From: a virus
DNA: 64,000 nt
IMG/VR virus record: IMGVR_UViG_3300012347_000286
Span: 3,266 to 67,265 of that record
Reading direction: 5' to 3' (one strand)
The translations under genes were made by a program, and so were the position numbers. Below, piece after piece: positions 9,784-63,343 of the stretch. The notes below the pieces were generated by a model. That model did no database searches. It worked only from the letters and a program-made list of their open reading frames with translations, and had not been told where the DNA came from. Each line of letters begins with the position of its first letter. The first letter of the stretch is position 1.

Positions 9784-9808
9784 CATTTTCTAAATATACG
9801 TATATAAT
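9780..9808 (+). promoter_or_regulatory. sigma70 promoter (TTGACA-17-TATAAT); FEN ATG lies only 6 nt downstream of the -10
   Basis: -35 at 9780-9785 and -10 at 9803-9808; ATG at 9815. Confidence 0.7.
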
Positions 9809-9814
9809 AGACAC

Positions 9815-10828
9815 ATGAAATACGCACTAATCGACACAGCAAACACATTCTTCCGCGCACGACACATTGCTTCTCGTCAAGCAGACACGTGGGAAAAAAT
9901 CGGAATGGCAATTCACTTGACACTCGCTAGTACTAATAGTGTGGTAAATAAGTTTGGAATTGACCATGTAGTCTTTTGCTTAGAAGGTAGGAGCTTTCGT
10001 AAGTCTATCTCCCCTGCATACAAAGCGCATCGTGCAGTAGCACGACAGGCTGCGACAGAAGCTGAAAAAGAAGAATCAGAAATGTTTTGGGAAACTTACG
10101 GCGCATTCACAGAATTCTTGCAAGAGAAAACTAACTGTAGTGTCCTGCGTCATCCCGAAGCAGAAGCAGACGATATGATTGCACGTTTCATTCATCTACA
10201 TCCCGATGATGAACATTTTATTATCAGCACAGACAGCGACTATCACCAATTAATTTCTGAAAAAGTTTCGCAGTTCAATGGAGTTACTAATGAACTCATT
10301 AAACTCGACGGTTACTACAATGATAAGGGCAAACTAATCATTGATAAGAAGACTAAAGAGCCTAAGTTGTTAGACGACCCCGAGTATATTCTATTCAAGA
10401 AAATCATTCGCGGTGACGCAGGCGACAACGTATTCAGTGCATTTCCTGGCGTACGTGAGATTGGTACTAAAACCAAAGTAGGTATTCGTGAAGCATTTGA
10501 AGACCGTAATAGTCAAGGCTTTAAATGGAATAACTTCATGTTACAGCGTTGGACTGACCATGATAATGTTGAGCATCGTGTAAAAGACAAATATGAATTG
10601 AACAAGATTCTGATTGACTTGAAAGCTCAACCTCAAGAAATTAAAGATAAAGTCGATGCGACTATCAAATCAGATGTGCGTGTTACTACTACCCCGCAAG
10701 TTGGTATTAATTTGATGAAGCTGTGTGGAAAATATGAACTTACGAAAATCTCTCAGCAGGCTGATAGCTATGCTAAATGGCTTAACCTCCCATATAAGGG
10801 CCAAGTACATGAATCACATCCTGCATAA
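9815..10828 (+). CDS. flap endonuclease / 5'-3' exonuclease (T5 D15 / T4 RNase H family)
   Basis: MKYALIDTANTFFRARH N-terminus and IISTDSDYHQL acidic clusters are typical of PIN-like 5' nucleases. Confidence 0.85.
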   Translation: MKYALIDTANTFFRARHIASRQADTWEKIGMAIHLTLASTNSVVNKFGIDHVVFCLEGRSFRKSISPAYKAHRAVARQAATEAEKEESEMFWETYGAFTEFLQEKTNCSVLRHPEAEADDMIARFIHLHPDDEHFIISTDSDYHQLISEKVSQFNGVTNELIKLDGYYNDKGKLIIDKKTKEPKLLDDPEYILFKKIIRGDAGDNVFSAFPGVREIGTKTKVGIREAFEDRNSQGFKWNNFMLQRWTDHDNVEHRVKDKYELNKILIDLKAQPQEIKDKVDATIKSDVRVTTTPQVGINLMKLCGKYELTKISQQADSYAKWLNLPYKGQVHESHPA

Positions 10829-26056: not shown

Positions 26057-27937
26057 ATGAGCAAAGTCATCGGTATCGACCTCGGTACCACAAATTCATG
26101 CGTAGCCGTTATTGAAAACGGAATCCCCAAAGTTATTGAGAATTCAGAAGGTGCTAGAACAACACCATCTATCGTTGCTTACACAAGTGATGAAATTCTA
26201 GTAGGCGCAAGCGCAAAGCGTCAGGCAGTAACAAACCCAAAGAACACAGTATACGCAAGCAAGCGTTTAATCGGTCGCAAGTTCGCCGAAGAAGCTGTCC
26301 AAAAAGATATTAATTTGATGCCATACAAAATCGTTGCTAATGACAACGGTGATGCATGGGTTCAAGTTAACGAAGATAAGTTAGCACCTCCGCAAATCTC
26401 AGCAGAAGTATTGCGCAAGATGAAGAAGACTGCGGAAGACTATCTAGGTGAAGAAGTCACCCAAGCAGTTATCACAGTTCCAGCATACTTTAACGATAGT
26501 CAACGTCAAGCAACGAAAGATGCTGGTCGTATTGCTGGTCTAGAAGTATTGCGTATTATCAACGAACCAACAGCAGCCGCACTAGCATACGGTGTTGACA
26601 AGCAAGACAAGAAAGACCGTAAAGTCGCAGTCTATGACTTAGGTGGAGGTACGTTTGACGTATCTATCATTGAGTTGGCAGACGTTGATGGTGATAAGCA
26701 GATTGAAGTTCTATCAACAAACGGCGACACTTTCTTGGGCGGTGAAGATTTCGACCAACGCATCATGGATTACTTGGTTGAAGAGTTTAAGAAAGAGTCC
26801 GGCGTTGACTTGACTAAAGACGTTCTTGCATTGCAACGTTTGAAAGAAGCCGCAGAGAAGGCTAAGATTGAATTGTCAAGTTCACAAAGCACAAGTGTTA
26901 ACTTGCCATACGTTACAGCAGACGCATCAGGTCCTAAACACTTGAACGTTACAATCAATCGTGCTAAGTTGGAACAACTAGTTGATGAATTGATTCAACG
27001 TAGTCTTGCCCCATGTAAGCAAGCGATGAAGGATGCAGGCGTTACTGCAAGTGACATTGACGAAGTTATCTTAGTCGGTGGTATGACACGTATGCCAAAG
27101 GTGCAAGAAGTTGTTGAACAATTGTTTGGCAAAGCACCTCGCAAAGATGTTAACCCAGACGAAGCAGTTGCCGCTGGTGCAGCTATTCAAGGTTCTGTTC
27201 TAGCAGGTGACCGTACTGACGTTCTATTGCTTGACGTTACTCCACTATCATTGGGTATCGAAACGATGGGCAATGTGTTCTCAAAAGTTATCAACAAGAA
27301 TACAACTATCCCTACTAAGGCTTCACAGACTTTCAGTACAGCACAGGACAATCAACCTGCTGTTACAATCAAAGTAGGACAGGGTGAGCGTGAACTATTC
27401 CAATATAATAAAGTACTTGGTGAGTTCAACTTAGATGGTATTGCACCAGCACCCCGCGGTATGCCTCAAATCGAAGTTACGTTTGATATTGACGCAAACG
27501 GTATCATGCACATCAGTGCTAAAGACAAGGGTACAGGTAAAGAGAACAAAATCACTATCAAGTCTAACTCAGGTTTGACAGAAGCAGAGATTCAGCAAAT
27601 GGTTAAAGATGCTGAGGACAATGCAGAAGCAGATAAGAAACACGTTGAATTGGTACAAGCACGTAACGGTGCTGAAGGTACGTACAACACGTTTAAGAAA
27701 GACTTTGATTCATACAAGGATCAAGTAACAGAAGAAGAACGTACCAAAGCAGAAGAAGCATTGAACGCTATTCAAGAGGCACTTAAAGGTGAAGATGTAG
27801 AAGCAATTCAAAAAGCTACTACTGATTTGTATCAATCGATTGGTCCAATCACCGCTAAGAAGCACGAAGCAGAAGAGGCTGCAAAGCCAAAAGCTGATGA
27901 CAACATCACTGATGCAGAAGTTAAGGAGGCGGTATGA
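26057..27937 (+). CDS. dnaK: DnaK (Hsp70) chaperone
   Basis: [22 protein letters not shown] and [11 protein letters not shown] are Hsp70 signatures; full-length. Confidence 0.95.
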
Positions 27938-37198: not shown

Positions 37199-37227
37199 TG
37201 ACATTTAACCATAACTGTGATATAATC
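37199..37227 (+). promoter_or_regulatory. sigma70 promoter (TTGACA-17-TATAAT)
   Basis: GATTGACATTTAACCATAACTGTGATATAAT. Confidence 0.7.
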
Positions 37228-37232
37228 ATACT

Positions 37233-38084
37233 ATGAAAATCGCACTATGCAGTGACCTGCACTTAGAATTTAAAGACATTGAACTATTCAACACCGAAGG
37301 TGCTGAGGTATTGATCCTATCTGGCGACATTATGGTTGCCGATAGCTTGCACAATCACGAGCCACCTACTGTGACTAGTCCATACGAGCCGTATCAAAAG
37401 CTAGGGCATAACGCATTGATGGCTCAACGATATCGTGCTTTCATGGAACGTGTGAGCAAAGAGTTCCCTCACGTTGTTTACGTTGCTGGTAATCACGAGT
37501 TCTATCACGGCAAGTGGGTAGGCTCTATCCAAGACCTTCGCAATGAGGCTGCACGGTATCCCAACGTGTACTACTTAGAGCGTGATATGAAAGTTATCAA
37601 TGACGTAACCTTTGTCGGTGCGACATTATGGACTGACTGCAATAAGGGTGACCCGTTGACACTTCACGCATTGACTGACATGATGAACGACTTCCGCATC
37701 ATCCGAAACGATGAAAAGGGTTACACAAAGTTGCGTCCTGCGCATACAATGTGGCGTCATCAACAAACTCTCAACTACTACACAACTGTTATCGGTGACC
37801 GTAAAGACGAGAAGATTGCGGTCGTTGGTCACCATGCACCAAGTAAAATGAGTACGCATGAACGTTACCTTGCACCCGAGCATTCTTTGATGAACGGTGG
37901 TTATAGTTCGGACCTTAGTGAGTTCATTCTTGACCATCCTCAAATCAAATTGTGGACGCACGGGCACATGCACGACCCATTTGATTACAACATCGGTGAG
38001 ACACGCATTGTCTGTAACCCTCGCGGTTACGGTGGTCACGATCCACAAGCTGATGTGTTCAAGCTACAGTTTTTGGATATCTAA
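37233..38084 (+). CDS. calcineurin-like metallophosphoesterase
   Basis: CSDLHLE (DxH), ILSGDIMV (GDxxD) and VAGNHEF (GNHE). Confidence 0.8.
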   Translation: MKIALCSDLHLEFKDIELFNTEGAEVLILSGDIMVADSLHNHEPPTVTSPYEPYQKLGHNALMAQRYRAFMERVSKEFPHVVYVAGNHEFYHGKWVGSIQDLRNEAARYPNVYYLERDMKVINDVTFVGATLWTDCNKGDPLTLHALTDMMNDFRIIRNDEKGYTKLRPAHTMWRHQQTLNYYTTVIGDRKDEKIAVVGHHAPSKMSTHERYLAPEHSLMNGGYSSDLSEFILDHPQIKLWTHGHMHDPFDYNIGETRIVCNPRGYGGHDPQADVFKLQFLDI

Positions 38085-42824: not shown

Positions 42825-43370
42825 TTAGAACCAGAGCCAAATGCCTTGGCTTAGTAAAATGATACCAATGACTGCGACTACTTCACTGACCTTGTACATT
42901 GTGTTATTAACAGCAATGATAGATGCAGACAATAGAACAATCGCTAATTGGAATGCCATTGAAGCAAATGTTAGCCATGGTGAATGTCTAGCTGCTTGGT
43001 CACGTGCTGCTTCAAATGCTTGTGCTTTTGCTAGTAACTCTTTCTTGCCTTCGCCTGACTTTGGGTCACTTTCGTAACGCTCAATCTTAGCTTCTAGCTT
43101 TTCTACGCGGGCTTTGTCGCCTTTAGCTTTAGCATCTTCTAGTTGCCCTTCAGCAATTGAGCCTTTGATACTCTTTGCTTGGAAGAAAGCGTATGTGTCA
43201 GTTGCCTTCAACATATTCTTCATTACTGCACCTGAGTGCTGGTTAGCAAAGTATGTAGTTACTGCCATGAACAATGCCATGATAACGATTACTAATCCTG
43301 CTTTGTCTTTGATTTGTGCTTCACGTTCTGAACGTGTGAGTGGTTTTGGTTGTTGTGCTGCTTCAGCCAT
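42825..43370 (-). CDS. membrane protein with central coiled coil (181 aa)
   Basis: A TM helix near residue 30, a KAE-rich coiled coil, and C-terminal TM helices. Confidence 0.55.
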   Translation of the reverse strand: MAEAAQQPKPLTRSEREAQIKDKAGLVIVIMALFMAVTTYFANQHSGAVMKNMLKATDTYAFFQAKSIKGSIAEGQLEDAKAKGDKARVEKLEAKIERYESDPKSGEGKKELLAKAQAFEAARDQAARHSPWLTFASMAFQLAIVLLSASIIAVNNTMYKVSEVVAVIGIILLSQGIWLWF

Positions 43371-51512: not shown

Positions 51513-51932
51513 TTAAGCTAAGATATATGGTTTGTTCCACTGACCGATGTTCACATCAACATACCAACCCACATCAAAGTAGTCAGTTTGGATGTCTGAA
51601 TTGTTGTGATTACCTTTGTTCATTTCGGCAAGAACTTCGGACAAGAATTCTTTTGCTTTACCTGAAAAGTGATCCTGATACCAGTATACATTCACATCCA
51701 ACGATTTGTTATTGCGGACGTACTCAATTTGGTCTTGAGACATTACGTTGTAATGTTTAGATCCGTTTGTACCGATATAATTTTCAATAAAGTCAATCGA
51801 ACCTGACTTAACATTCAGAACAAAAGTACTGTGATTGCGTACAGCAAGAGAACCCTTGACACCGTACTTTTTCAGGATAGCTTTGATAGCTGGGGCACGT
51901 TCAGATTTGCGTTCTTGATTGAAGTAAGCCAT
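51513..51932 (-). CDS. hypothetical protein (139 aa)
   Basis: AAGAGGA RBS downstream of a consensus promoter. Confidence 0.6.
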   Translation of the reverse strand: MAYFNQERKSERAPAIKAILKKYGVKGSLAVRNHSTFVLNVKSGSIDFIENYIGTNGSKHYNVMSQDQIEYVRNNKSLDVNVYWYQDHFSGKAKEFLSEVLAEMNKGNHNNSDIQTDYFDVGWYVDVNIGQWNKPYILA

Positions 51933-51964: not shown

Positions 51965-51993
51965 CTATTATATGCCCAAAACGATTAATTGTC
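51965..51993 (-). promoter_or_regulatory. sigma70 promoter (minus; TTGACA-17-TATAAT, TAGACAG box downstream)
   Basis: Reverse complement reads GGTTGACAATTAATCGTTTTGGGCATATAATAGATACTTAGACAG. Confidence 0.7.
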
Positions 51994-52000
51994 AACCTTT

Positions 52001-52135
52001 TTATTGGTGTAGACGGTCGATTTCTGCATCAATTTTAGCTTGGACTTGGGCGTTGCGCTCATACATAGCTTGGTACACCATGTAGCCAATGTAGATTACG
52101 CCAAAAGTCACTGCAACAATGTCAACTATATCCAT
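52001..52135 (-). CDS. small TM protein (44 aa), not in the ORF track
   Basis: AGGAAG RBS; MDIVDIVAVTFGVIYIGYMVY. Confidence 0.45.
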   Translation of the reverse strand: MDIVDIVAVTFGVIYIGYMVYQAMYERNAQVQAKIDAEIDRLHQ

Positions 52136-52169
52136 TTTTTACTTCCTGTGTTTTGCTGTCTAAGTATCT

Positions 52170-52198
52170 ATTATACAACCAAAACCATTATTTGTCAA
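52170..52198 (-). promoter_or_regulatory. sigma70 promoter (minus)
   Basis: Reverse complement reads GGTTGACAAATAATGGTTTTGGTTGTATAATAGATACTTAGACAG. Confidence 0.7.
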
Positions 52199-52203
52199 CC
52201 TTT

Positions 52204-52383
52204 TTACGAATTAATCGTTTCAAAAGGATTGAATACTTCAGTATTAGTTTCTGGTTCCATCAAATCTGAGGTTTCGTATACCCAAATGACGGGCACTTCG
52301 AGAAACTCAGCGATTCGCATGGGAGAATAACCCTGCTCCAACATTAATTCAATGTCGATGGATAGTTCGGACATTTTACTCAT
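52204..52383 (-). CDS. small HTH-like protein (59 aa), not in the ORF track
   Basis: TAATG coupling; LEQGYSPMRIAEFLEVP resembles a helix-turn-helix. Confidence 0.4.
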   Translation of the reverse strand: MSKMSELSIDIELMLEQGYSPMRIAEFLEVPVIWVYETSDLMEPETNTEVFNPFETINS

Positions 52384-52583
52384 TACTTTTTACTTGAAGC
52401 ACCTGCATTAAACATGATGCCGAACAAGATGTTCAGACCCCATGCTTGCAACCAAGTAACTTCTTTGACACCTGTAGCATCAACCAAGCAACCGTTCCAC
52501 AACATGTAGACGGGCCAAGACAAGAGGAAGCTGATGAACAAGAGGGATACGAGTCCAACGAGAACTGCGAAAAGTTTTTCCAT
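52383..52583 (-). CDS. small membrane protein (66 aa, 2 TM)
   Basis: AAGGA RBS; track ORF. Confidence 0.5.
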   Translation of the reverse strand: MEKLFAVLVGLVSLLFISFLLSWPVYMLWNGCLVDATGVKEVTWLQAWGLNILFGIMFNAGASSKK

Positions 52584-52585
52584 GA

Positions 52586-52771
52586 TTAATCCTTATCAAT
52601 AGGTAAAGCGATGATTTTACAATGCTGGTCTCGTGGGAGTGATTTTTCACATTCCTCGATAGCATTTTTTATGATGTTTTTGTCACTAGTAGGGGAGAGG
52701 TCAATAAGAGCCGCTAGTGCTACTAAGGCAATTAACGCTCCCATCCCCATTGTCATTAATGTTTCTTTCAT
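52586..52771 (-). CDS. small membrane protein (61 aa); paralog of 55227..55397
   Basis: C-terminus IIKNAIEECEKSLPRDQHCKIIALP versus YRQAIQECERTLPRDQHCKVIGVP. Confidence 0.5.
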   Translation of the reverse strand: MKETLMTMGMGALIALVALAALIDLSPTSDKNIIKNAIEECEKSLPRDQHCKIIALPIDKD

Positions 52772-53067
52772 TATGCCGCCGACAACATGTTAGCCGGAAC
52801 GCGCCAGACACCGCCGATTTGTACGCCGGGCTTGTCTTCACGCACGAGAATGAATTTACGATTGACCTTCTCAACAGTACCTAGAACAGTCATACCTTGA
52901 CGACCTGTGAACTTGACTTTAGAACCTTTGACTAGCGTACACTTTACAGTAGATGCAATTTGGGCACGAGCAAAACGAATTGCGTCACCGATTGCATTCA
53001 GTTGTTCGTTAGTAAAGTTACCAGCGATGATAGCGGCGTTGACTTGGGCTACTGATGAAACTGTCAT
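52771..53067 (-). CDS. hypothetical protein (98 aa)
   Basis: CAGGAG RBS after the promoter; the track start is an upstream TTG. Confidence 0.55.
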   Translation of the reverse strand: MTVSSVAQVNAAIIAGNFTNEQLNAIGDAIRFARAQIASTVKCTLVKGSKVKFTGRQGMTVLGTVEKVNRKFILVREDKPGVQIGGVWRVPANMLSAA

Positions 53068-53101
53068 TTTCAAACTCCTGTTTGTTGCTGTCTAAGATTC
53101 T

Positions 53102-53130
53102 ATTATACAACCAAAATGATTAATTGTCAA
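53102..53130 (-). promoter_or_regulatory. sigma70 promoter (minus)
   Basis: Reverse complement reads GATTGACAATTAATCATTTTGGTTGTATAATAGAATCTTAGACAG. Confidence 0.7.
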
Positions 53131-53357
53131 TCCTTTTCGTTGATTTTTTTCAAGGTTTCTTGGTACTCAAGGCGATTGAGGGTGACACAATACAAAATGT
53201 ATACTAACCAACTAATGAATCCAAACATGAATGCATCTATAATAACCTCTGCCGACACTGTATGTAGGACAAATACGATTGCTCCCACACCAGCGAATGC
53301 CAAGCCAAGTATGCCGAATGTGAAAAGTAATGCTTTTAGTTTAAGCGAAAGTTTCAT
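53127..53357 (-). CDS. small membrane protein (76 aa, 2 TM)
   Basis: AAAGGA RBS before the internal ATG of track ORF 53127..53471. Confidence 0.5.
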   Translation of the reverse strand: MKLSLKLKALLFTFGILGLAFAGVGAIVFVLHTVSAEVIIDAFMFGFISWLVYILYCVTLNRLEYQETLKKINEKD

Positions 53358-53487
53358 TTTTGATTTCCTTTGTAAGAATGTCGTTTGTGATGATTGTGCC
53401 GCCATATGCTTGCTGGAATGTATCAGCGACAGCCTTGAGAAAGAAAGTGAATACTTTACCGTTACGTGCAATGAGTGTGTATTTCAT
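53341..53487 (-). CDS. hypothetical small protein (48 aa), not in the ORF track
   Basis: AAGGAA RBS directly after the promoter. Confidence 0.4.
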   Translation of the reverse strand: MKYTLIARNGKVFTFFLKAVADTFQQAYGGTIITNDILTKEIKNETFA

Positions 53488-53511
53488 ACATTCCTTTGAA
53501 TCAATATATGA

Positions 53512-53540
53512 ATTATACACCCAAAATGATTAATTGTCAA
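53512..53540 (-). promoter_or_regulatory. sigma70 promoter (minus)
   Basis: Reverse complement reads CTTGACAATTAATCATTTTGGGTGTATAAT. Confidence 0.65.
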
Positions 53541-53691
53541 GTCCTCGATTGCGATGTTTTGGTTGACGATTGTACTTGCCCTTTTTGGACTCTACCACCT
53601 TGGGTTTGAACGGCGTGTCCTCACAGAATAGAACACGATGGACCCGATGTTTGGGCTGTTTAACAGTGAAGGATAGTAGTTCTTTTTTCAT
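53530..53691 (-). CDS. small basic protein (53 aa), apparently leaderless; its stop lies inside the next promoter
   Basis: ATG is 6 nt after the -10; K/R-rich (KPKVVESKKGKYNRQPKHRNRG). Confidence 0.4.
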   Translation of the reverse strand: MKKELLSFTVKQPKHRVHRVLFCEDTPFKPKVVESKKGKYNRQPKHRNRGLDN

Positions 53692-53697
53692 AACGAA

Positions 53698-53726
53698 ATT
53701 ATAGCATGAACTCTATTTAGTGTCAA
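53698..53726 (-). promoter_or_regulatory. sigma70 promoter (minus; TTGACA-17-TATAAT)
   Basis: Reverse complement reads GGTTGACACTAAATAGAGTTCATGCTATAAT. Confidence 0.65.
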
Positions 53727-54091
53727 CCGATAGTTAACTCAATTCGTTTGACGTTTTTGGTAGTAAAACTACGCCATTCTTTCTTTTCTAAGTCAAAGAC
53801 ACGCAATGCCTTTGTACTTACAGTTTCCTTACGAGGCGTCTTACCCTCTGCTAATGGGACTGCCGGTGGCAAATCTTTTGCTTCTAAGGTACACTTCATC
53901 ACACGCTCAGACCCATCTACCTTAGTGAATGTGATTGTTGCTGGACCCATTTGTAACATGCTCTTGAGCCAAGCATGTAGGTTGGCTTCTGTGATATCAT
54001 CAATGTTTTTTAAGTTATTAGGGTCAGTGAAGTTAATCATTATAATTCCAGTACGTGATATTTTGAAAAGGGGTAAGTGATTTGTAACCAC
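53723..54091 (-). CDS. hypothetical protein (up to 122 aa; start uncertain, GTG at 54091 or ATG at 54040)
   Basis: Track ORF. Confidence 0.5.
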   Translation of the reverse strand: MVTNHLPLFKISRTGIIMINFTDPNNLKNIDDITEANLHAWLKSMLQMGPATITFTKVDGSERVMKCTLEAKDLPPAVPLAEGKTPRKETVSTKALRVFDLEKKEWRSFTTKNVKRIELTIG

Positions 54092-54149
54092 TCAAGTAAT
54101 TCAGGGTCATATGGAAGATTGACTTCCCCATCTTTGTTTGTGATAATTT

Positions 54150-54443
54150 TCACAACTCAACCTTTTCACCCTCATGAGTGAAGAAGGCAGATTCTTTCTT
54201 AGCTTTAGTCCAACTCTTACAGTAGTGATTGTCTTCATCACAGATTGCAAGTGCTTCTTTCTTAGAAACAACTCGGTGCGACACAATCGTTTCACCGAGA
54301 TGCACTTGACTGAATTCTTTTGCTTCGTTCATAACTACAGTATCAAGCGCCCATTCTTTTTTGCCTTCAGGCACTTCGACCATATAGCGCATACGAAACT
54401 GAGATACAGCTTCTACCAAGACCCATTCTTTTTTCTCTGACAT
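54150..54443 (-). CDS. hypothetical protein (97 aa)
   Basis: GGAG RBS. Confidence 0.6.
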   Translation of the reverse strand: MSEKKEWVLVEAVSQFRMRYMVEVPEGKKEWALDTVVMNEAKEFSQVHLGETIVSHRVVSKKEALAICDEDNHYCKSWTKAKKESAFFTHEGEKVEL

Positions 54444-54444
54444 T

Positions 54445-54738
54445 TTAAGCTCCAGTTAACATACGAATTAAACCAATACTATCAATGGTTGTTAGCAAGA
54501 TGTAGTTTGCCAACATTCCAAAACTCTTCCTAGTGAAAGCAGCCCAAGCGTACATAGCGCAACCTGCGATCCAAACAGGATACAACATAATAAGCGGTGG
54601 GTTGGGGACAGTGAGTGCCATAGTAATACTACACCCAATAGAAATAGCCCAAGCGCACAACTCAACGCAAAAGCGCAAAGGGTGAGTTCTGTAATCATCT
54701 TTGATCCAACTAAAAATTCCAGCTAATATATCATTCAT
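54445..54738 (-). CDS. membrane protein (97 aa, 3 TM)
   Basis: ATGA coupling; hydrophobic. Confidence 0.55.
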   Translation of the reverse strand: MNDILAGIFSWIKDDYRTHPLRFCVELCAWAISIGCSITMALTVPNPPLIMLYPVWIAGCAMYAWAAFTRKSFGMLANYILLTTIDSIGLIRMLTGA

Positions 54739-54932
54739 TCGGGTCGACCTTGTTCTTTCATTCGGGGTTCTAAAACTGTATTATACAGTTCTTCCATTAC
54801 TTTGTAAAGACTTTTGGCATCGCGCTCAGTCAAGCCACTCGTCCAGGGCGGGTCACTTTCTAGTTTTCTGATGCCATAGTCATGTCTGTAATCCAGACAC
54901 ATTTCATAGATAATTTCGTCTTTTGTTTTCAT
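54735..54932 (-). CDS. hypothetical protein (65 aa)
   Basis: ATGA coupling; the track start is an upstream TTG. Confidence 0.5.
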   Translation of the reverse strand: MKTKDEIIYEMCLDYRHDYGIRKLESDPPWTSGLTERDAKSLYKVMEELYNTVLEPRMKEQGRPE

Positions 54933-55240
54933 AACCAACTGTGACCGGTCCAAGTGTTTAAGAATCTCATGCTTGCTTTACCACCAGAGGCAAAGTACTT
55001 CTTCTCAAACAGATTGTATGCTGACTTCCATTTCTTAGCAACTGGTTTGGGTGAGTGACAAGCTAGGTAATGTAACTTTTGAAACTGCTTAACAATAGTT
55101 TTCTTATTGAGTTTGTAGCCAGCTGGATACCATTCGATTCGAGTTTGGAAGTTGTAGTTATCGTTATGACCATACCTCAATCGTTCTTTCATTACGTAAG
55201 CCTTACCAAAGTCTTGTGGTCTAAACTTATTTCGGGACAT
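54929..55240 (-). CDS. hypothetical basic protein (103 aa)
   Basis: GGAG RBS before MSRNK. Confidence 0.55.
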   Translation of the reverse strand: MSRNKFRPQDFGKAYVMKERLRYGHNDNYNFQTRIEWYPAGYKLNKKTIVKQFQKLHYLACHSPKPVAKKWKSAYNLFEKKYFASGGKASMRFLNTWTGHSWL

Positions 55241-55397
55241 GAGGTACTCCAATTACTTTACAATGCTGGTCACGAGGAAGTGTTCGTTCACATTCTTGAA
55301 TAGCTTGACGATACTTAGTGTTATCGCTCCATGGGTGATTGAACAACCATATTGCGACAATAAAGCCAATGAAGGCTGCCCAAAGTGTATCTTTCAT
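55227..55397 (-). CDS. small membrane protein (56 aa), not in the ORF track; paralog of 52586..52771
   Basis: GGAGAG RBS; shared C-terminal ECE(K/R)(S/T)LPRDQHCK motif. Confidence 0.45.
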   Translation of the reverse strand: MKDTLWAAFIGFIVAIWLFNHPWSDNTKYRQAIQECERTLPRDQHCKVIGVPHVPK

Positions 55398-55573
55398 TAC
55401 TTCTCTCCGAAGATATAAGCGCCCATTTTCTTTTCAGTCGCTTCTTTGTCTTTCATACCGCAATCAAAGCAAATTTCTTCACCATTGGGACCGTATGGTC
55501 TAGTTTCGTCAATCATCCCGCACATTTGACATGCTTGGGGAGATTCTTCTTGGATGATGCCGCGACCACTCAT
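55397..55573 (-). CDS. small zinc-ribbon protein (58 aa), not in the ORF track
   Basis: CQMCG ... CFDCG (2x CxxC); TAATG coupling downstream. Confidence 0.45.
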   Translation of the reverse strand: MSGRGIIQEESPQACQMCGMIDETRPYGPNGEEICFDCGMKDKEATEKKMGAYIFGEK

Positions 55574-55749
55574 TGCATTGAATCTTTCATCATTTTGTAG
55601 TTCAGATATGCAAGACCAAAGTCAATCACTGCACTGATGCCATCGCCTCGTTCAATGCTAACTAAACCATGGGCGCAACACCAACCAATAATAAACCATG
55701 TGATTTGAAAGTAGTTTTCACGCCACCATGCTAAAAATTTATCAATCAT
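55570..55749 (-). CDS. small TM protein (59 aa), not in the ORF track
   Basis: AAGGA RBS; hydrophobic WFIIGWCCAHGLV. Confidence 0.4.
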   Translation of the reverse strand: MIDKFLAWWRENYFQITWFIIGWCCAHGLVSIERGDGISAVIDFGLAYLNYKMMKDSMQ

Positions 55750-55853
55750 TTTTCATCCTTATTTGTATACTTGCCTGCTTTGTATCCAGTGTAGATAGCC
55801 ATTGCTATCACACTGAATATACCGAGAACTAGTAGAATCTCAATTACTATCAT
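55746..55853 (-). CDS. possible TM peptide (35 aa)
   Basis: ATGA coupling; a single hydrophobic helix. Confidence 0.3.
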   Translation of the reverse strand: MIVIEILLVLGIFSVIAMAIYTGYKAGKYTNKDEK

Positions 55854-55989
55854 TTAGTTTACTCACATCGAAACGCTTACGAAGTTTTGTTGCAAAATAA
55901 CCTTTAAGGATGACTTCATCAAACATGAAGAACAGCCCAATCAACAATGTAATCGTAATTGTAATCATAAAAAAGTCAGCAAAAAACAT
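55840..55989 (-). CDS. possible small TM protein (49 aa)
   Basis: GGGA RBS immediately after the upstream stop; hydrophobic. Confidence 0.35.
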   Translation of the reverse strand: MFFADFFMITITITLLIGLFFMFDEVILKGYFATKLRKRFDVSKLNDSN

Positions 55990-55991
55990 AA

Positions 55992-57122
55992 TTAATCCCA
56001 GCTTGATGAAGAACTTGAATCACTAGAGCTAGATGAACTAGAGCTATCCGACCAGCTTGACGAGCTAGAAGATGAACTAGAGCTATCCGACCAGCTTGAG
56101 CTTGAGGACTTGCTTGGTGTGTCATCCCAGCTTGAGCTACGCGATGGGGTGCTTGGTGCGTCATCCCATGAGCTGGAGCGTGAACTAGAACTTGCGGGCA
56201 CTTCACGTTCAACAATACGTTCACGTTCCACAACTCGGGTAGTATCGTGATGCGAACCACTCAACATGTTACCAATCAACACACCAGTCAACATATCAGT
56301 GCCACTTGAGCTAGTATGCACAACAGTCGGGGCAGGCTGACTGAAAGTGTTTGCTGATGTACGATACATTCGTGCGCTTGCTTCTGCGGCATCTGCACGA
56401 GCTTGAGCAGCCAGTCGTTCACGGCGTTCTTCTGCTTCAAGGAAGAGTCGTTGCTTTTCTGCGGCTTCTTCTTTCACACGCTTAACTGTTTTCAACTTGT
56501 CAGGATTCTCTGGGTCGAAACGTTCGTGACCATAATTCTTATGTGACTTCAATGCAGCCTCTGCCGCCAATTCAGCCTTACGTTCTGCATCTTGCTTGGC
56601 AAGCATATCCATGTGTTGACGCTTACGTTCAGCTTCACGGTCTGCACGAGCTTTTTCCTCGATTGCTTTGAGTTCGGCTTCGTATTTTTCGTCAGCTTCT
56701 TTATTCTTACGATACACGGTATAGATAATGCCACCAACTGCAAACACAAACAGTACCAAGATAATGTTGCGTACAGTATGACTTTCCTCAATGGATTCAA
56801 TCTTTGCTACTTGCGGGGTAATTGCTTGTTTCAGTTTTTGCACTGAACCTTCAGGAGCAAAGTCAAGTGTTGGGTTAAGACCTGTTGCGATTGTCAGGGC
56901 TTTGTTTGCTTTTTCTAGATTGCCTAGACCTGCTTGTGCTTGCGCCATTGCGTAGAATGCTTTGGAACTCTTTGGATGATTCTGAATAATCACCTCAAGA
57001 CCTGATGCGGCTGCGGCATAGTTCTTTTGTTGAATGAGACCTTCGATTTGTTCAAACGTTGCTTCGGCTTGTGCGGCGATTGCCATCAAACCAAACATTA
57101 CTGCGACTAGAAACTTTTTCAT
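55992..57122 (-). CDS. secreted protein: signal peptide, TPR-like N-domain, charged coiled coil, Ser-rich repetitive C-terminal tail
   Basis: MKKFLVAVMFGLMAIAAQA signal; an EAERKRQ-type coiled coil; (S)nWDD(A/T)PS repeats. Confidence 0.65.
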   Translation of the reverse strand: MKKFLVAVMFGLMAIAAQAEATFEQIEGLIQQKNYAAAASGLEVIIQNHPKSSKAFYAMAQAQAGLGNLEKANKALTIATGLNPTLDFAPEGSVQKLKQAITPQVAKIESIEESHTVRNIILVLFVFAVGGIIYTVYRKNKEADEKYEAELKAIEEKARADREAERKRQHMDMLAKQDAERKAELAAEAALKSHKNYGHERFDPENPDKLKTVKRVKEEAAEKQRLFLEAEERRERLAAQARADAAEASARMYRTSANTFSQPAPTVVHTSSSGTDMLTGVLIGNMLSGSHHDTTRVVERERIVEREVPASSSSRSSSWDDAPSTPSRSSSWDDTPSKSSSSSWSDSSSSSSSSSSWSDSSSSSSSSDSSSSSSWD

Positions 57123-57148: not shown

Positions 57149-57177
57149 ATTATATAGGAAAAGCGGTTTATTGTCAA
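57149..57177 (-). promoter_or_regulatory. sigma70 promoter (minus)
   Basis: Reverse complement reads GGTTGACAATAAACCGCTTTTCCTATATAAT. Confidence 0.7.
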
Positions 57178-59319: not shown

Positions 59320-60720
59320 TTATTTGCGAGAGTTTGCTCGGACTTCGTCAAAAGTGTAAGACTTTGTAAGACTACCATCTTCGTAGACAGTAACCAATGC
59401 GTCAGTCCAACCACCAATGCCTTTGTCTGACCAACCTGTTGGGGCTGATACACCAGATGCATATTCGCCACCACTGTTAGTGAACAAACGAACACGACCA
59501 CCTTTACTACGTTTGCCTGAGTCAGTGATAGGATCCTTGACTACATCGATCCATTTACCATCGACCTGGACACTTGAGCATTTCATTGCGAAACGTTGGG
59601 TGTCGCGGTCCACGATTTGCAACAACGCTCCACCCATGCCAAAAGCAATATTATCAGCACTGTACCCAAGAGCCATAAAAGCACCGAGAATCCCGCGAAT
59701 AGTAAGTTCATTTACACCATCTCCTTGAATGAGGCGAACGTTGTTCAACACTTTAAAGCCTTTAGAGTTTTTCACACTACCGAACTTCATGTCCAGAATT
59801 TGTACCAACTCTTTGTTGACTGTGATAGGATCACCTGAGTCAGGACGAATCACAACCACTGCACCACTATCAATAACTTGTTGACGCAATTCTTCACCCC
59901 AGATTTTACTGGCTGCGTTGAAAATGTCGTAGCTATCAGATACAAACGCAACGATAGAGCCGGGCTTACCGTATTGTGTTAACATGTTGCTGTAGGCTTT
60001 TGCTTCGTTTTCACGGCCCCAACTTGTTACAGTGCTGTGCTCCATTGCAGGAATGCTGTAACCGCAAACGTCAGCATCATAATACTCCATAGCGTACAGA
60101 ATACCAGTAATAGTGTCGGTACCCATAAAGTTAATGAGATGTCCCGCACCACCAATCCCAGCGCTTTCAAGAGAGCTAACGCCCCGAGCACCGAAATCGT
60201 GTAACTTAAAATCAATACCACTTGGGTCTCCTGTCTTTTCTAAGTACTCGGCAATCACTTTCTTGATTGTGTAAGATTGTGTTGCCACTGTTGTGCCATA
60301 CCACACTGCACGAAGCAATGATGTTTCAAGCCAAGTTGTCAACCAGAAACAGTTAGGGTCTGTGTTCTCAATTGTTGCAAGTACGTTCGAGACCGGAACA
60401 ACAGAGCCTTCGGGTACCGCTCTAATAACAACTGGGAGATATCCGTTGTGGTTGTCAAGAATGTACTGCCATCCTTCTCGGTTAAAGGGGACACCGTGTG
60501 CTGTGAGGATTTTGTCTGCGGTGTCAATGTCAGCTTGGGTAATTGGGCTGAGTAAGTATTCTTTGATAAAAGCCTGTAATCCGAAGAATACCGTTCTATC
60601 ATAACGGCCCCCTCGTGACTCAATGTACGAGTATACACCTGTAGTTCCTACTGGATATTGTTTGAACATTGATACTTTATAGCTATCTGTGTTCAGGATG
60701 ATGTTTTTAGCGAGTTTCAT
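59320..60720 (-). CDS. nadV: nicotinamide phosphoribosyltransferase (NAMPT / NadV)
   Basis: N-terminal NIILNTDSYKVSMFKQYP and overall length are typical of NadV (as in KVP40-type phages). Confidence 0.9.
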   Translation of the reverse strand: MKLAKNIILNTDSYKVSMFKQYPVGTTGVYSYIESRGGRYDRTVFFGLQAFIKEYLLSPITQADIDTADKILTAHGVPFNREGWQYILDNHNGYLPVVIRAVPEGSVVPVSNVLATIENTDPNCFWLTTWLETSLLRAVWYGTTVATQSYTIKKVIAEYLEKTGDPSGIDFKLHDFGARGVSSLESAGIGGAGHLINFMGTDTITGILYAMEYYDADVCGYSIPAMEHSTVTSWGRENEAKAYSNMLTQYGKPGSIVAFVSDSYDIFNAASKIWGEELRQQVIDSGAVVVIRPDSGDPITVNKELVQILDMKFGSVKNSKGFKVLNNVRLIQGDGVNELTIRGILGAFMALGYSADNIAFGMGGALLQIVDRDTQRFAMKCSSVQVDGKWIDVVKDPITDSGKRSKGGRVRLFTNSGGEYASGVSAPTGWSDKGIGGWTDALVTVYEDGSLTKSYTFDEVRANSRK

Positions 60721-62323: not shown

Positions 62324-63343
62324 TTATGCACCCACAGCCCACATGACCATGTCATAGTGGTCTTCGAAACATTCGTCACTGCGTACTTCTGCGATTGGTA
62401 CCCAACGTGCTTTTTCAGCGTCATCACTACCTTTCACCTTAGGCAACTCACCATCAGGCAACTGAATCTTGAAACAGTGTGTGATGATACGACCACGGGG
62501 TGAACGATCCACAGCGTCAAATACACGATTGTCAACGATGCTACCACGCAACACGGGGCCTGGTACTTTAATCATTGTTTCTTCGCGCAGTTCACGAATA
62601 GCCGCATCCAATACTGTCTTGTCGGTGTTTGCGTTGACGTAACCACCGGGCAATGCCCACAAGCCACGACCGGGTTCAGCACGGCGTTTAATCATCAACA
62701 CGTGACCCGAACAGATAACAACACTGTCAGCAGTAGAGAAGATTGGAGGGTACTTCAAGCTGGCATATTGTTTGTTGTGTTCAATCAAGAATTCACGTTC
62801 GCGGATAATCTGTTCATACTCAGGAGTATCCTTGAAAGCATCCAAGTAGACGAATGTACTTTGTGGAACCACAGCTTTAATGAAGTTCATGTTTACATCA
62901 CGTTTGAAATACAAGTCACGGATGTTAACTGCACTGAGTGGTTCAATTTCTTCCACATCAACGTATTCCCATTGGGGGAACATATCCAAGTAGAAACTTG
63001 ATTCGTCTTTTTTGTGACCGATGATGGCAGTTTTAGTGCCGAGGATGCGATAACGACTTACGATACTCTGGATGCGTACTGCCCAGGCTTGGTCATTGTA
63101 CATGGTGTCAATGTTTTCTTCGATGTGAATACTCATTGACAGACCGCCTGTAGCAGCCTTAATCATTCTAGCACGTTCGGCACTAGTGAACGGGTTTTTG
63201 TAAGTGCGGGGTTGAGCAGCCGATCCTGTGATAATCACGAGGTTGTCGGTCAATGCTGTGGCTCGCTTGATAATCTCTAAGTGAGCATTGTGGAAGGGTT
63301 GAAAGCGTCCAATGAGGACTAGTGTACCATATTCTTTTGACAT
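62324..63343 (-). CDS. nadM: bifunctional NMN adenylyltransferase / Nudix hydrolase (NadM-Nudix, NatV-like)
   Basis: GRFQPFHNAH is the (H/T)xGH nucleotidyltransferase motif. The Nudix box is GGYVNANTDKTVLDAAIRELREETMI. Confidence 0.85.
   Translation of the reverse strand: MSKEYGTLVLIGRFQPFHNAHLEIIKRATALTDNLVIITGSAAQPRTYKNPFTSAERARMIKAATGGLSMSIHIEENIDTMYNDQAWAVRIQSIVSRYRILGTKTAIIGHKKDESSFYLDMFPQWEYVDVEEIEPLSAVNIRDLYFKRDVNMNFIKAVVPQSTFVYLDAFKDTPEYEQIIREREFLIEHNKQYASLKYPPIFSTADSVVICSGHVLMIKRRAEPGRGLWALPGGYVNANTDKTVLDAAIRELREETMIKVPGPVLRGSIVDNRVFDAVDRSPRGRIITHCFKIQLPDGELPKVKGSDDAEKARWVPIAEVRSDECFEDHYDMVMWAVGA

Follow-up and report, generated by a model that had tools for sequence, protein, structure and literature searches.

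Small accessory genes in a conserved, mosaic block of an uncultivated phage, with a putative ArfA-like product

Positions 52,001-55,989 of the window (the whole 64,000-nt stretch of the viral record IMGVR_UViG_3300012347_000286 that was analysed) are filled on the minus strand by 19 ORFs, g01-g19, each of 35-105 aa, and our results support their description as a conserved, mosaic set of small accessory genes. As a phage accessory region the block is of an ordinary kind, and it holds several leads. We consider it rather probable that an uncultivated freshwater phage has here a genuine accessory ('hyperplastic') gene block, transcribed leftward from sigma70 promoters, with g12 as an ArfA-like protein and g05 and g16 as bitopic membrane proteins. 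Judged from sequence, g12 appears to be the best lead and the only gene with a mechanistic reading. An earlier note had described the region as an array of small membrane and basic proteins, probably acting early on the host; its observation is partly confirmed, in that it holds in outline, and its interpretation is partly supported, though not to the extent of linking any product to anti-defence or superinfection exclusion.

Gene content and coding status

The block is the densest 4-kb bin of the window in small ORFs, with 17 of its 18 called ORFs no longer than 105 aa and a median ORF length of 60 aa as against 81-365 aa in the other bins. The tight packing of at least 18 short ORFs is borne out, since 13 of the 18 junctions between g01 and g19 either overlap or are at most 2 nt wide (ATGA in five cases, 1-nt TAATG-type overlaps in four, 14-17-nt overlaps in three), and so is the remark that several are shorter than 60 aa, which applies to 10 of the 19. 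The genes are listed below, where substitutions are counted at codon positions 1/2/3 and L197 and L047 are close relatives, L197 being the closest.

u1: 55992..57122, minus strand; 376 aa, heads the operon and lies outside the block; hydrophobic N-terminal segment, weak sub-threshold TPR matches, a second transmembrane (TM) helix and a Ser-rich tail; a fragment in L197 is 89% identical
g01: 55840..55989, minus strand; 49 aa, one TM helix; the weakest ORF
g02: 55746..55853, minus strand; 35 aa, one TM helix; 91% identical in L197 (substitutions 1/1/7)
g03: 55570..55749, minus strand; 59 aa, Trp-rich, borderline hydrophobic; 91% identical in L197 (4/0/8)
g04: 55397..55573, minus strand; 58 aa, acidic C4 zinc-ribbon protein; phrog_18256 (E=4.6e-9); six IMG/VR loci
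g05: 55227..55397, minus strand; 56 aa, TM helix and Cys-x9-Cys loop; paralogue A, '...IGVP' subtype; phrog_7508 (E=2.7e-7); 100% identical in L197
g06: 54929..55240, minus strand; 103 aa, very basic (pI 10.2), no family; 86% identical in L047 and L197 (12/9/27)
g07: 54735..54932, minus strand; 65 aa, soluble, no family; 22 loci, identity 42-77%
g08: 54445..54738, minus strand; 97 aa, amphipathic helix and three TM helices; the most conserved gene of the block
g09: 54150..54443, minus strand; 97 aa, soluble; 28 loci, identity 43-71%; absent from L047 and L197, a single-gene insertion relative to both
g10: 54040..54153, minus strand; 37 aa, acidic, GTG start; LPY..L.EWLQETYPFS.Y common to seven distinct homologues
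g11: 53723..54040, minus strand; 105 aa, WYL_2/DUF2693 SH3-like beta-barrel (PF10902, 53.9 bits against a cut-off of 26.7; phrog_1086, E=9e-22); homologues in T4-like phages
g12: 53530..53691, minus strand; 53 aa, basic, ArfA-like/DUF7230-like
g13: 53341..53487, minus strand; 48 aa, basic, soluble; 11 loci, identity 52-95% (3/1/11)
g14: 53127..53357, minus strand; 76 aa, two TM helices, 17-nt overlap with g13; eight loci, identity 39-45%
g15: 52771..53067, minus strand; 98 aa, basic, N-terminal helix and beta-rich C-terminal half, no family; 63 loci; weak sub-threshold PDB matches only (E>=0.1), mainly to OB/KOW-type RNA-binding domains
g16: 52586..52771, minus strand; 61 aa, TM helix and Cys-x9-Cys loop; paralogue B, '...IIAxPxxKD' subtype; phrog_7508 (E=4.5e-7)
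g17: 52383..52583, minus strand; 66 aa, two TM helices; phrog_2169 'membrane protein' (E=4e-8); 25 loci
g18: 52204..52383, minus strand; 59 aa, very acidic, weak HTH-like segment (HTH_23 only at E=0.043), conserved C-terminal SPFxT[VI]NS; 34 loci
g19: 52001..52135, minus strand; 44 aa, one TM helix, conserved KIDAEIDRLH tail; three loci, identity 47-91%

Conservation in related phages had been set beforehand as one test of these ORFs, and when related IMG/VR phage contigs were searched by tblastn, 18 of the 19 had homologues, with the order mostly preserved. The best identity lies between 42 and 100% for 17 of these 18, the other being g01, with a single 40% match in L047. Also, in the comparison with L197 and L047 third codon positions take most of the substitutions. 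Because of this protein-level conservation and the codon-position bias we regard the ORFs as coding. That they are chance open frames in AT-rich DNA has a probability close to nil, and this reading is rejected for all of them except possibly g01, whose one homologue is weak and which is missing from L197.

On a Kyte-Doolittle scan (19-residue window, threshold 1.6 or above) eight ORFs have a TM segment (g01, g02, g05, g08, g14, g16, g17 and g19) and g03 is borderline, so that the claim of one or two TM helices in most of the products does not hold; the figure is only 8-9 of 19. The 2xCxxC zinc ribbon reported at 55397..55573 is upheld in g04, where all four Cys are retained in four distinct homologues. 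Above cut-off, Pfam gave nothing for the block products except g11. Most products are therefore without annotation, as had been said, but "unannotatable" is too strong in view of the ArfA-like g12, the WYL_2 protein g11, the C4 zinc ribbon of g04 and the PHROG families of g05, g16 and g17.

Promoters, operon structure and mosaicism

The promoters given here are consensus matches only. A perfect (12/12) sigma70 sequence occurs seven times on the minus strand of 50.5-57.5 kb and 16 times in the whole window. Those around the block, with the gene that follows it, are:

57149..57177, minus strand; perfect sigma70 promoter (TTGACA-17-TATAAT) of the u1 and g01-g11 operon
53698..53726, minus strand; g12 promoter, perfect sigma70 with extended -10, ending 6 nt before the g12 ATG
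53512..53540, minus strand; g13-g14 promoter cassette, its -35 hexamer overlapping the end of g12
53102..53130, minus strand; g15-g18 promoter cassette
52170..52198, minus strand; g19 promoter cassette
51967..51995, minus strand; promoter cassette of the downstream gene, marking the end of the block
51,513-51,932; downstream conserved gene, phrog_10415

The individual promoters proposed earlier are thus present for g12, g13, g15 and g19 but not for g01-g11, within which the minus-strand scan of 50.5-57.5 kb found no 12/12 match. Instead, these genes are translationally coupled and make up the tail of an operon headed by u1, with its promoter at 57,177. The cassette is a consensus promoter/5'-UTR unit of about 65 bp that recurs across the genome (12 matches against 0 expected), contains a conserved TTTGG spacer and a conserved 5' UTR, and precedes g12, g13-g14, g15-g18 and g19. 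It may be noted that consensus host-type promoters also serve DNA ligase and other replication-type genes. As sequence matches, these promoters fit early, host-directed expression: the host sigma70 RNA polymerase would read the block leftward, probably early, and the 8-9 small membrane proteins would act at the host envelope while the small soluble ones would act on host machinery.

A lysis cassette (holin, antiholin, spanins) might also account for several clustered proteins of 35-76 aa with one or two TM helices. This we take to be highly unlikely, as a scan of the neighbouring genes and of about 40 other window ORFs turned up no endolysin-like domain, the promoters are of the same host-type consensus kind as those of DNA ligase and other replication-type genes, and neither a lipobox nor a spanin pair is visible in the block sequences.

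T4-type phages have hyperplastic early regions with repeated promoter cassettes, and T5 has early small-gene regions. The present block resembles these in its dense small ORFs, in gene content that is mosaic between relatives and in strong host-type promoters repeated as near-identical cassettes. It differs in that the cassette includes the conserved spacer and 5' UTR, and in that the block's first half lacks cassettes and forms a single long coupled operon.

The relatives are told apart by whole genes that have been gained or lost. T4-type promoter/stem-loop cassettes have been proposed as recombination sites, and there is nearly an even prospect that the block has no concerted function but consists of 'moron'-type cassettes, each exchanged independently, whose promoter units are mainly sites of recombination, a reading that is compatible with the accessory-block explanation. 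In its favour, the closest relatives lack g01, g09, g14, g16 and g18 and have extra genes of their own; the promoter cassettes cross-match at several positions and coincide with breaks in the homology to related phages, and g05 and g16 represent different subtypes of their family and not a recent duplication. Against this, the core order g07-g08-g11-g12-g13-g15-g17/18-d1 is kept down to about 50-60% protein identity, purifying selection on g08 is very strong, and the indels of the first half fall between coupled genes, where cassettes are missing.

The ArfA-like protein g12

The leaderless basic 53-aa protein of the earlier note is g12 (pI 10.4, net charge +10). Only 6 nt separate its ATG from a TGn-extended 12/12 promoter (TTGACA-17-TATAAT), hence it is leaderless by geometry; the same arrangement recurs in 22 of 23 homologues, with 6-9 nt between the end of a consensus promoter and the ATG, but not in the neighbouring genes. 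The family had no tblastn match among 50,697 phage records, and NCBIfam models gave no match. A 46-aa relative is found in chromosomes of Ca. Methylopumilus and other Methylophilaceae in non-prophage context. Only one shared small gene and a similar G+C content (0.37-0.38 vs 0.40) point to the identity of the host.

When the g12-family profile was searched against the PDB, the top four matches were all ArfA (E 0.16-0.29). With hhalign, the family aligned to enterobacterial ArfA over 38 columns (ArfA residues 10-50; E 2.2e-5), at a probability of 76%, too low to be decisive. Among 42,881 ORFs an ArfA HMM gave 40 matches, 28 of them in the g12 family, including nine of the ten best (p=5e-80), and none with reversed sequences; because this control was negative, the similarity is specific and not compositional. 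Reciprocally, the g12 HMM ranked spiked-in ArfA sequences first. By these profile tests g12 is specifically ArfA-like. Its Pfam scores are nevertheless below the curated cut-offs, both for ArfA (PF03889; 15.1 bits, 21 for the best family member, cut-off 25.5) and for DUF7230 (PF23876; 18.3 bits, cut-off 27). Weak matches recur in the family, to DUF7230 in 10 of 11 members, for which it is the best one, and to ArfA in 5 of 11. DUF7230 is also the best weak match of the Methylophilaceae protein, some homologues are named ArfA by JGI, and some carry a precomputed PF23876 domain. No mention of DUF7230 was found in the literature.

Like E. coli ArfA (PF03889; PDB 5U4I, 5MDV, 5H5U), g12 has a basic C-terminal tail, K-K-G-K-x-Y-x-R-x-x-K-H, and a hydrophobic patch, L-(L/F)...(L/P)-F, of equal spacing. 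Its invariant L21-F22...P27-F28 aligns with ArfA L19/L24/F25, although ArfA L24 is replaced by Pro and A18 by Val (Ala in some relatives). In ArfA these three residues contact RF2 Trp319, and others line the mRNA channel (PMC5378476). The patch of g12 may thus recruit RF2 to release the peptide, which would free ribosomes for phage translation. The 12 N-terminal residues are unrelated to ArfA and unaligned, and, unlike in E. coli, the gene is phage-encoded and its mRNA leaderless. Bacterial arfA is subject to tmRNA-linked control, and the active, truncated form of ArfA has about 55 aa. As g12 ends near this length at a normal stop codon and no significant RNA structure or regulatory hairpin was detected, it would be made constitutively from its leaderless mRNA, outside the non-stop-mRNA/tmRNA control of the bacterial gene.

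ArfA-type genes have precedents in cultured phages, namely pelagiphage HTVC027P gp30, reported to be highly expressed (PMC12753301), and ORFs of Pseudoalteromonas phage J2-1, Citromicrobium phage RXM, Pseudomonas phage pf16 and Salmonella phage Arash. These are nearer to canonical ArfA than g12 is, with a PF03889 domain or 42-63% identity to the E. coli protein; our literature search found no biochemical test of them.

The sub-threshold ArfA scores, the greater number of members matching DUF7230, the unaligned N-terminus, the lack of a detected hairpin and a leaderless expression that differs from that of bacterial arfA would also suit a protein without a rescue function. It could bind the ribosome through its ArfA-like tail as an inhibitor or modulator, for example by plugging the mRNA channel of vacant ribosomes and so shutting off host initiation, or it could be a basic peptide that binds RNA or DNA in general, with DUF7230 having its own function. 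We hold this to be unlikely, though to be reckoned with, since the ArfA similarity is specific and not compositional, and the family's invariant residues fall where ArfA contacts RF2 Trp319 and lines the mRNA channel. Also, a chromosomal copy is retained in a streamlined bacterium, which favours a housekeeping-type role over a toxin.

The paralogous pair g05 and g16

The paralogous pair stands, with 42% identity between g05 and g16 (E=3e-18) and exactly two copies of the motif in the window against 0 expected. Both belong to a widespread, uncharacterised membrane-protein family of about 700 proteins (phrog_7508; 702 homologues for g16, whose AF2 model has a pLDDT of 81). Erwinia phage vB_EamP_Frozen gp33 and Escherichia phage ECBP2 J9RVY1 share the layout, in which a C-E-K-(S/A)-L-P-R-D-Q-H-C loop comes after the TM helix within 56-63 aa, and members likewise lie among small ORFs of the non-structural region; the two diverged copies set the present window apart. 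C41, L45, P46, R47 and C51 are invariant across the family.

The two Cys and one His of ECE..LPRDQHCK had been proposed to bind a metal ion. Both Cys are indeed invariant in 89 aligned members, but many have K, Q, E, Y, V or S in place of His50, and it is on this lack of conservation that the proposal fails; two Cys would not suffice unless the protein dimerises, and a Pro lies in the middle of the loop. Metal binding is therefore quite improbable. As bitopic membrane proteins, g05 and g16 would most likely present the invariant C-E-K-S-L-P-R-D-Q-x-C loop as a disulfide-stapled periplasmic ligand of a conserved envelope target, the positive-inside rule giving an ambiguous topology for both.

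The conserved membrane protein g08

The nucleotide identity of g08 to L047 and L197 is 98%. At least 600 IMG/VR matches (74-89% identity), with 114 cluster representatives all of about 95 aa, indicate a widespread membrane-protein family, in which Glu26 is invariant and Asp86 and R70-x-S are highly conserved. For g08 itself there was no Pfam match and a PDB match was lacking too; its single-sequence structure model was of too poor quality for fold comparison. There is a weak alignment between the family and PnuC (PF04973), over the first three-helix bundle of the latter, with the invariant TM1 Glu landing on a conserved PnuC Glu, at an hhalign probability of only 21%; with 97 aa and three TM helices against about 230 aa and 7-8 in PnuC, the apparent resemblance is weak. 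PnuC is a nicotinamide riboside transporter, common in phages beside NadV/NatV-type NAD salvage genes (KVP40). Here, likewise, there are NAMPT and NMNAT-Nudix genes on the same strand, 4.6-8.6 kb upstream.

Organization and conservation of the small-gene block

Where the earlier note had described a dense array of at least 18 small ORFs (52,001-55,989, minus strand), we found 19 (g01-g19, numbered in transcription order) of 35-105 aa, and 10 of these fall below 60 aa. Neighbouring ORFs overlap or are no more than 2 nt apart at 13 of the 18 junctions (five ATGA overlaps, four 1-nt overlaps of the TAATG type and three of 14-17 nt), and the remaining gaps of 31-68 nt are precisely the promoter sites. 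The 4-kb bin of the block has the most small genes in the window, with a median length of 60 aa as against 81-365 aa elsewhere. IMG/VR was scanned with g16, g08, g04 and the downstream gene at 51,513-51,932, which gave about 200 related loci. Lack of conservation in related phages had been named as what would speak against these ORFs; tblastn against the related loci gave homologues for 18 of the 19 proteins, and for 17 of these the best identity is 42-100%. The first ORF, g01, has a single 40% match and is missing from the related phage contig L197, where the upstream gene meets g02 directly. Gene order is kept in L197, L047, L050, L051, L052, L091 and L106, and between the window and the close relatives L197 and L047 (81-98% nucleotide identity) substitutions fall mostly at third codon positions (counts for positions 1/2/3: g02 1/1/7, g03 4/0/8, g11 13/3/39, g13 3/1/11). 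The gene content of the relatives varies by insertion or deletion of whole genes, with g09, g14, g16 and g18 absent from L047 and additional genes in L197 at the g02/g03, g06/g07 and g07/g08 junctions. Judged by this conservation the block ORFs are real genes, g01 being the one doubtful case. Taken as a whole the earlier note was largely correct in describing real ORFs, and it went too far on the fraction of transmembrane proteins, on individual promoters and on a His ligand. Crowded regions of small early genes are a familiar trait of large phages; the block is thus an ordinary kind of phage region and not new as such, and its reading as an early accessory or host-takeover region is plausible.

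Promoters, operon and cassettes

A consensus scan for perfect TTGACA-17-TATAAT promoters found 16 in the whole window. Seven of these lie between 50.5 and 57.5 kb on the minus strand, and none is within g01-g11. A promoter/5′-UTR cassette of about 65 bp is common to 10 of the 16; it covers the spacer, with an invariant TTTGG, and the 5′ UTR (AGATACTTAGACAG...AGG), of which the transcribed start, AGATACTTAGACAG, is conserved.

Perfect promoters in the block region and copies of the cassette in the window
57,177, minus strand, perfect promoter upstream of u1, a 376-aa gene at 55,992-57,122
53,726, minus strand, perfect promoter of g12
53,540, minus strand, perfect promoter of g13, cassette copy
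53,130, minus strand, perfect promoter of g15, cassette copy
52,198, minus strand, perfect promoter of g19, cassette copy
51,995, minus strand, perfect promoter of a downstream gene, cassette copy
51,336, minus strand, perfect promoter of a downstream gene
15706, 16388, 16649, 18858, 34374 and 34650, plus strand, cassette copies

Since g01-g11 contain no perfect promoter, the individual promoters claimed for the array are limited to its second half, and g01-g11 form the coupled downstream part of the operon headed by u1. From the promoter type we infer that the block is probably expressed early. The cassettes are homology breakpoints against the relatives and also match one another, so that modular exchange fits. 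In the T4-type promoter/stem-loop shuffling cassettes a repeated early promoter and a stem-loop lie around exchanged small ORFs; of this layout, the repeated promoter cassettes and the breakpoints at them were observed here. A terminator scan gave sites no more numerous than in shuffled sequence, and Rfam gave zero families across the whole window. The conservation of the cassette reaches past both hexamers. Separately, g07 contains an 11/12 promoter-like site (TTTACA-17-TATAAT, 54780-54808, minus strand) that lies 41 nt ahead of g08 and from which this highly conserved gene might be transcribed separately.

A predicted leaderless gene with an ArfA-like product

We rate g12, which encodes a basic protein of 53 aa and appears to be a divergent ArfA-like gene, as the most interesting component of the block. 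In a leaderless mRNA, transcription begins at the start codon or only a few nt away from it, and a Shine-Dalgarno sequence is absent. The g12 promoter is a 12/12 match with a TGn extension, and its -10 hexamer ends 6 nt 5′ of the ATG. Among 23 distinct upstream regions from homologues, 22 have an 11-12/12 promoter that stops 6-9 nt short of the ATG, and the neighbouring gene families have no comparable layout. The leaderless basic protein of the earlier note is thus borne out as far as promoter geometry goes, by which the g12 mRNA would be leaderless. The same geometry (TATAAT, 6 nt, ATG) was also seen at a FEN-type 5′-3′ exonuclease gene (9808-10828, plus strand) and at a calcineurin-like phosphoesterase gene (37226-38084, plus strand).

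The g12 family has 597 homologues, with R16, H18, L21, F22, P27, F28, K31, V32, Y40, R42, K45 and H46 invariant. Single-sequence scores against Pfam are low for both candidate families. For ArfA (PF03889) g12 gives 15.1 bits (E 0.016) and its best relative, P0219, 21 bits, against a gathering cut-off of 25.5, while for DUF7230 (PF23876) g12 gives 18.3 bits and a Methylopumilus protein 21.7 bits against a cut-off of 27. Weak DUF7230 matches are found in 10 of 11 family members and weak ArfA matches recur across members too; for several close homologues a PF23876 match is already precomputed, some homologues are named ArfA by JGI, and NCBIfam gave no match for g12. Profile comparisons point to ArfA. 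The best four PDB matches of the g12-family profile are all ArfA, and hhalign against 15 enterobacterial ArfA sequences aligned the family with ArfA residues 10-50 (probability 76%, E 2.2e-5). When an ArfA HMM was run on the window together with the related loci (42,881 ORFs in all), we obtained 40 matches, 28 of them in the g12 family (9 of the top 10), which makes up only 43 of these ORFs (enrichment p=5e-80); a reversed-sequence control gave zero matches. In the reciprocal search with a g12 HMM, spiked-in ArfA sequences came first among the non-family matches.

ArfA brings about RF2-dependent, stop-codon-independent peptide release on stalled ribosomes, and the bacterial protein is made from a non-stop mRNA cleaved at a hairpin inside the gene, a control linked to tmRNA. 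In contrast, the g12 gene ends in a normal TAA stop, and no arfA-type regulatory hairpin was found by folding (z=-1.4 for g12, z=-0.4 for the Methylopumilus gene). In ArfA a hydrophobic patch of L19, L24 and F25 contacts Trp319 of RF2, with A18 in the core (PMC5378476); the invariant L21 and F28 of g12 align with L19 and F25, whereas P27 stands at L24 and V20, which is Ala in several relatives, at A18. The positive C-terminal segment of ArfA (KGKGSYxRKGKH) fills the mRNA channel, and the protein is still active when truncated at residue 47 and inactive at 40 (PMC5378476); K36-K37-G38-K39-Y40-x-R42-x-x-K45-H46 of g12 aligns with this segment (ArfA K33-H45), and g12 reaches the equivalent of residue ~52. 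Canonical ArfA-like ORFs are present in a few cultured phages, and gp30 of pelagiphage HTVC027P has been reported as ArfA (PMC12753301). The g12 family gave no tblastn match in the 50,697 deposited phage records.

A shorter relative of g12, of 46 aa (MKQIRKLKLRSQTHYALFRADLPFKPKVEKDKTKFKRQSKHKAKLD), was found by a scan of one genome per species to be conserved in the chromosomes of Ca. Methylopumilus and other Methylophilaceae. This ArfA-like/DUF7230-like ORF starts 6 nt after a MarC-family gene, in chromosomes with a G+C of 0.36-0.38.

Chromosomal relative of g12
L211, 5968-6108, 46-aa ORF of Ca. Methylopumilus universalis NZ_OZ239098; also in the chromosomal loci L205-L210, L212 and L214

The relative gives a hint of the host group and suggests that g12 may have come from a host, and in these streamlined freshwater Methylophilaceae the ORF is possibly an unrecognised minimal ribosome-rescue factor. 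That the host itself belongs to the Methylophilaceae is a guess from one shared small gene and the G+C; our literature search found no described phage matching this one. In a more speculative reading, g12 would have been captured from, or be shared with, a mini-ArfA of the Methylophilaceae host and freed from tmRNA control. Its leaderless mRNA could still be read by 70S ribosomes where ordinary initiation is impaired or mRNAs are damaged, and the protein would recruit RF2 and clear ribosomes stalled by phage- or defence-induced cleavage of mRNA or tRNA, acting thereby as a host-takeover or counter-defence factor at the level of translation. If the family of about 600 proteins is ArfA-like, RF2-dependent ribosome rescue would be extended to phage biology.

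The g08 protein and NAD+ salvage

The most conserved gene of the block is g08. It is matched in IMG/VR at least 600 times (74-89% identity), and its nucleotide identity to L047 and L197 is 98%, where the adjoining genes have 81-90%. Its 97-aa product combines an amphipathic helix with three TM helices; Glu26 is invariant, and Asp86 and R70-x-S are highly conserved. We considered the transporters SemiSWEET and PnuC and could accept neither: two profiles gave no sequence match in the PDB, and a single-sequence AF2 model (pLDDT 61) returned a meaningless Foldseek list. For PnuC there are weak signals. The protein itself does not match Pfam NMN_transporter (PF04973), 8 of 45 divergent relatives match it weakly (E 0.006-1), and hhalign of the g08 family against seven PnuC sequences aligned the first three PnuC helices with a probability of only 21%. 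PnuC has 7-8 TM helices in two three-helix bundles, while g08 has three and the 114 cluster representatives are all about 95 aa. The PnuC link is therefore a lead and no finding. It is worth testing because NAMPT and NMNAT-Nudix genes lie upstream: as a three-helix 'half-PnuC' within the operon system of g12, g08 would feed these neighbouring NAD salvage enzymes. Its conservation extends over hundreds of phage contigs from the environment, and it may be regarded as a candidate for a minimal transporter. The full combination, in which the g12 family is an always-on phage rescue/counter-defence factor and g08 a 'half-PnuC' supplying the salvage enzymes, we consider rather unlikely.

The NAMPT and bifunctional NMNAT-Nudix genes (59320-60720 and 62324-63343, both minus) form an NAD+ salvage pair on the strand of the block, 3.3-7.3 kb upstream of it, of the same kind as NadV/NatV of Vibrio phage KVP40. 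Pairs of this kind have been associated with counteracting defences that deplete NAD.

The paralogous pair g05/g16

The pair reported in the array was recovered: g05 and g16 are 42% identical (E=3e-18), and their back-translated motif has exactly two copies in the window against 0 expected. Both match phrog_7508 (E=2.7e-7 and 4.5e-7) and have a TM helix and a conserved Cys loop. Synonymous differences separate the two motif copies, and g05 and g16 are each nearer to a different subtype from other phages, which argues that the two are not a recent duplication; two family copies are also found in L002 (in tandem) and L028. A profile search with g16 gave 702 homologues, 0 with a Pfam domain or an informative name. 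In an alignment of 89 family sequences C41, E42, L45, P46, R47, C51 and P57 are invariant, whereas position 50, which is His in the window copies, is variable; this argues against the metal site of two Cys and one His that had been proposed. An AlphaFold2 model of g16 from the same alignment (pLDDT 81) has a TM helix (2-25), a second helix (30-43) that ends at the first Cys, and an extended tail, and its structural neighbours in BFVD are only uncharacterised phage proteins such as ECBP2 J9RVY1. Our guess is that the Cys-x9-Cys is a disulfide-stapled periplasmic loop. Architecture and motif are the same in gp33 of Erwinia phage Frozen, and since cultured phages of Erwinia and E. coli have members of this family of about 700 proteins with the invariant loop, genetics is possible.

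Other block proteins and the rest of the window

By Kyte-Doolittle analysis TM segments are present in 8 of the 19 proteins (g01, g02, g05, g08, g14, g16, g17 and g19), with g03 borderline, and not in most as had been stated; five (g06, g11, g12, g13 and g15) are basic. The assignment of g11 to WYL_2/DUF2693 (PF10902) is clear (53.9 bits against a gathering cut-off of 26.7; phrog_1086, E=9e-22), and when the 19 concatenated proteins were searched by tblastn only g11 homologues matched, in T4-like phages. The g04 protein (phrog_18256) is a predicted C4 zinc ribbon, in agreement with the 2xCxxC protein of the earlier note, as C15, C18, C35 and C38 are kept in all four distinct homologues. Its DksA/TraR (NF008243, 15.1 bits against a cut-off of 96) and rubredoxin-like matches were dropped because they are weak and far below cut-off and g04 lacks the N-terminal coiled coil with an acidic tip that precedes the zinc finger of DksA/TraR, having only 14 residues before the first Cys. 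The g17 protein belongs to phrog_2169. Nothing was found in Pfam, PHROG or NCBIfam for g01, g03, g06, g07, g10, g13, g14 and g15, and only non-significant sub-threshold matches for g02, g09 and g18; an Inhibitor_I66 match of g09 (E 0.0017) is under cut-off and was rejected. The g15 profile gave sub-threshold PDB matches only, mainly to OB/KOW-type RNA-binding domains.

The block DNA had no megablast or blastn match in the 50,697 phage records, nor did a 1,103-aa neighbour protein by tblastn. The window is phage-like yet, on these comparisons, unlike any deposited phage. Its products include Hsp70, DNA ligase, a FEN-type exonuclease, NAMPT, NMNAT-Nudix, and SPFH and AAA proteins, and tRNA genes are absent.

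A few further observations may be noted. The acidic 59-aa g18 (52204-52383, minus), whose family is present in 34 loci, has a segment weakly resembling an HTH, and its conserved C-terminal tail, SPFxT(V/I)NS, might be a docking motif. The u1 protein (55992-57122, minus) has a hydrophobic segment at its N-terminus and a second TM segment, and its TPR matches are weak and sub-threshold; its middle part is charged and coiled-coil-like, and SSSWSD/SSSWDD units are repeated in its long Ser-rich tail. The Hsp70/DnaK homologue (26057-27937, plus; 858 bits) is full-length, an unusual phage cargo, and a DUF4337 protein (42825-43370, minus; 104 bits) lies in a short opposite-strand gene run at 42.8-44.3 kb.
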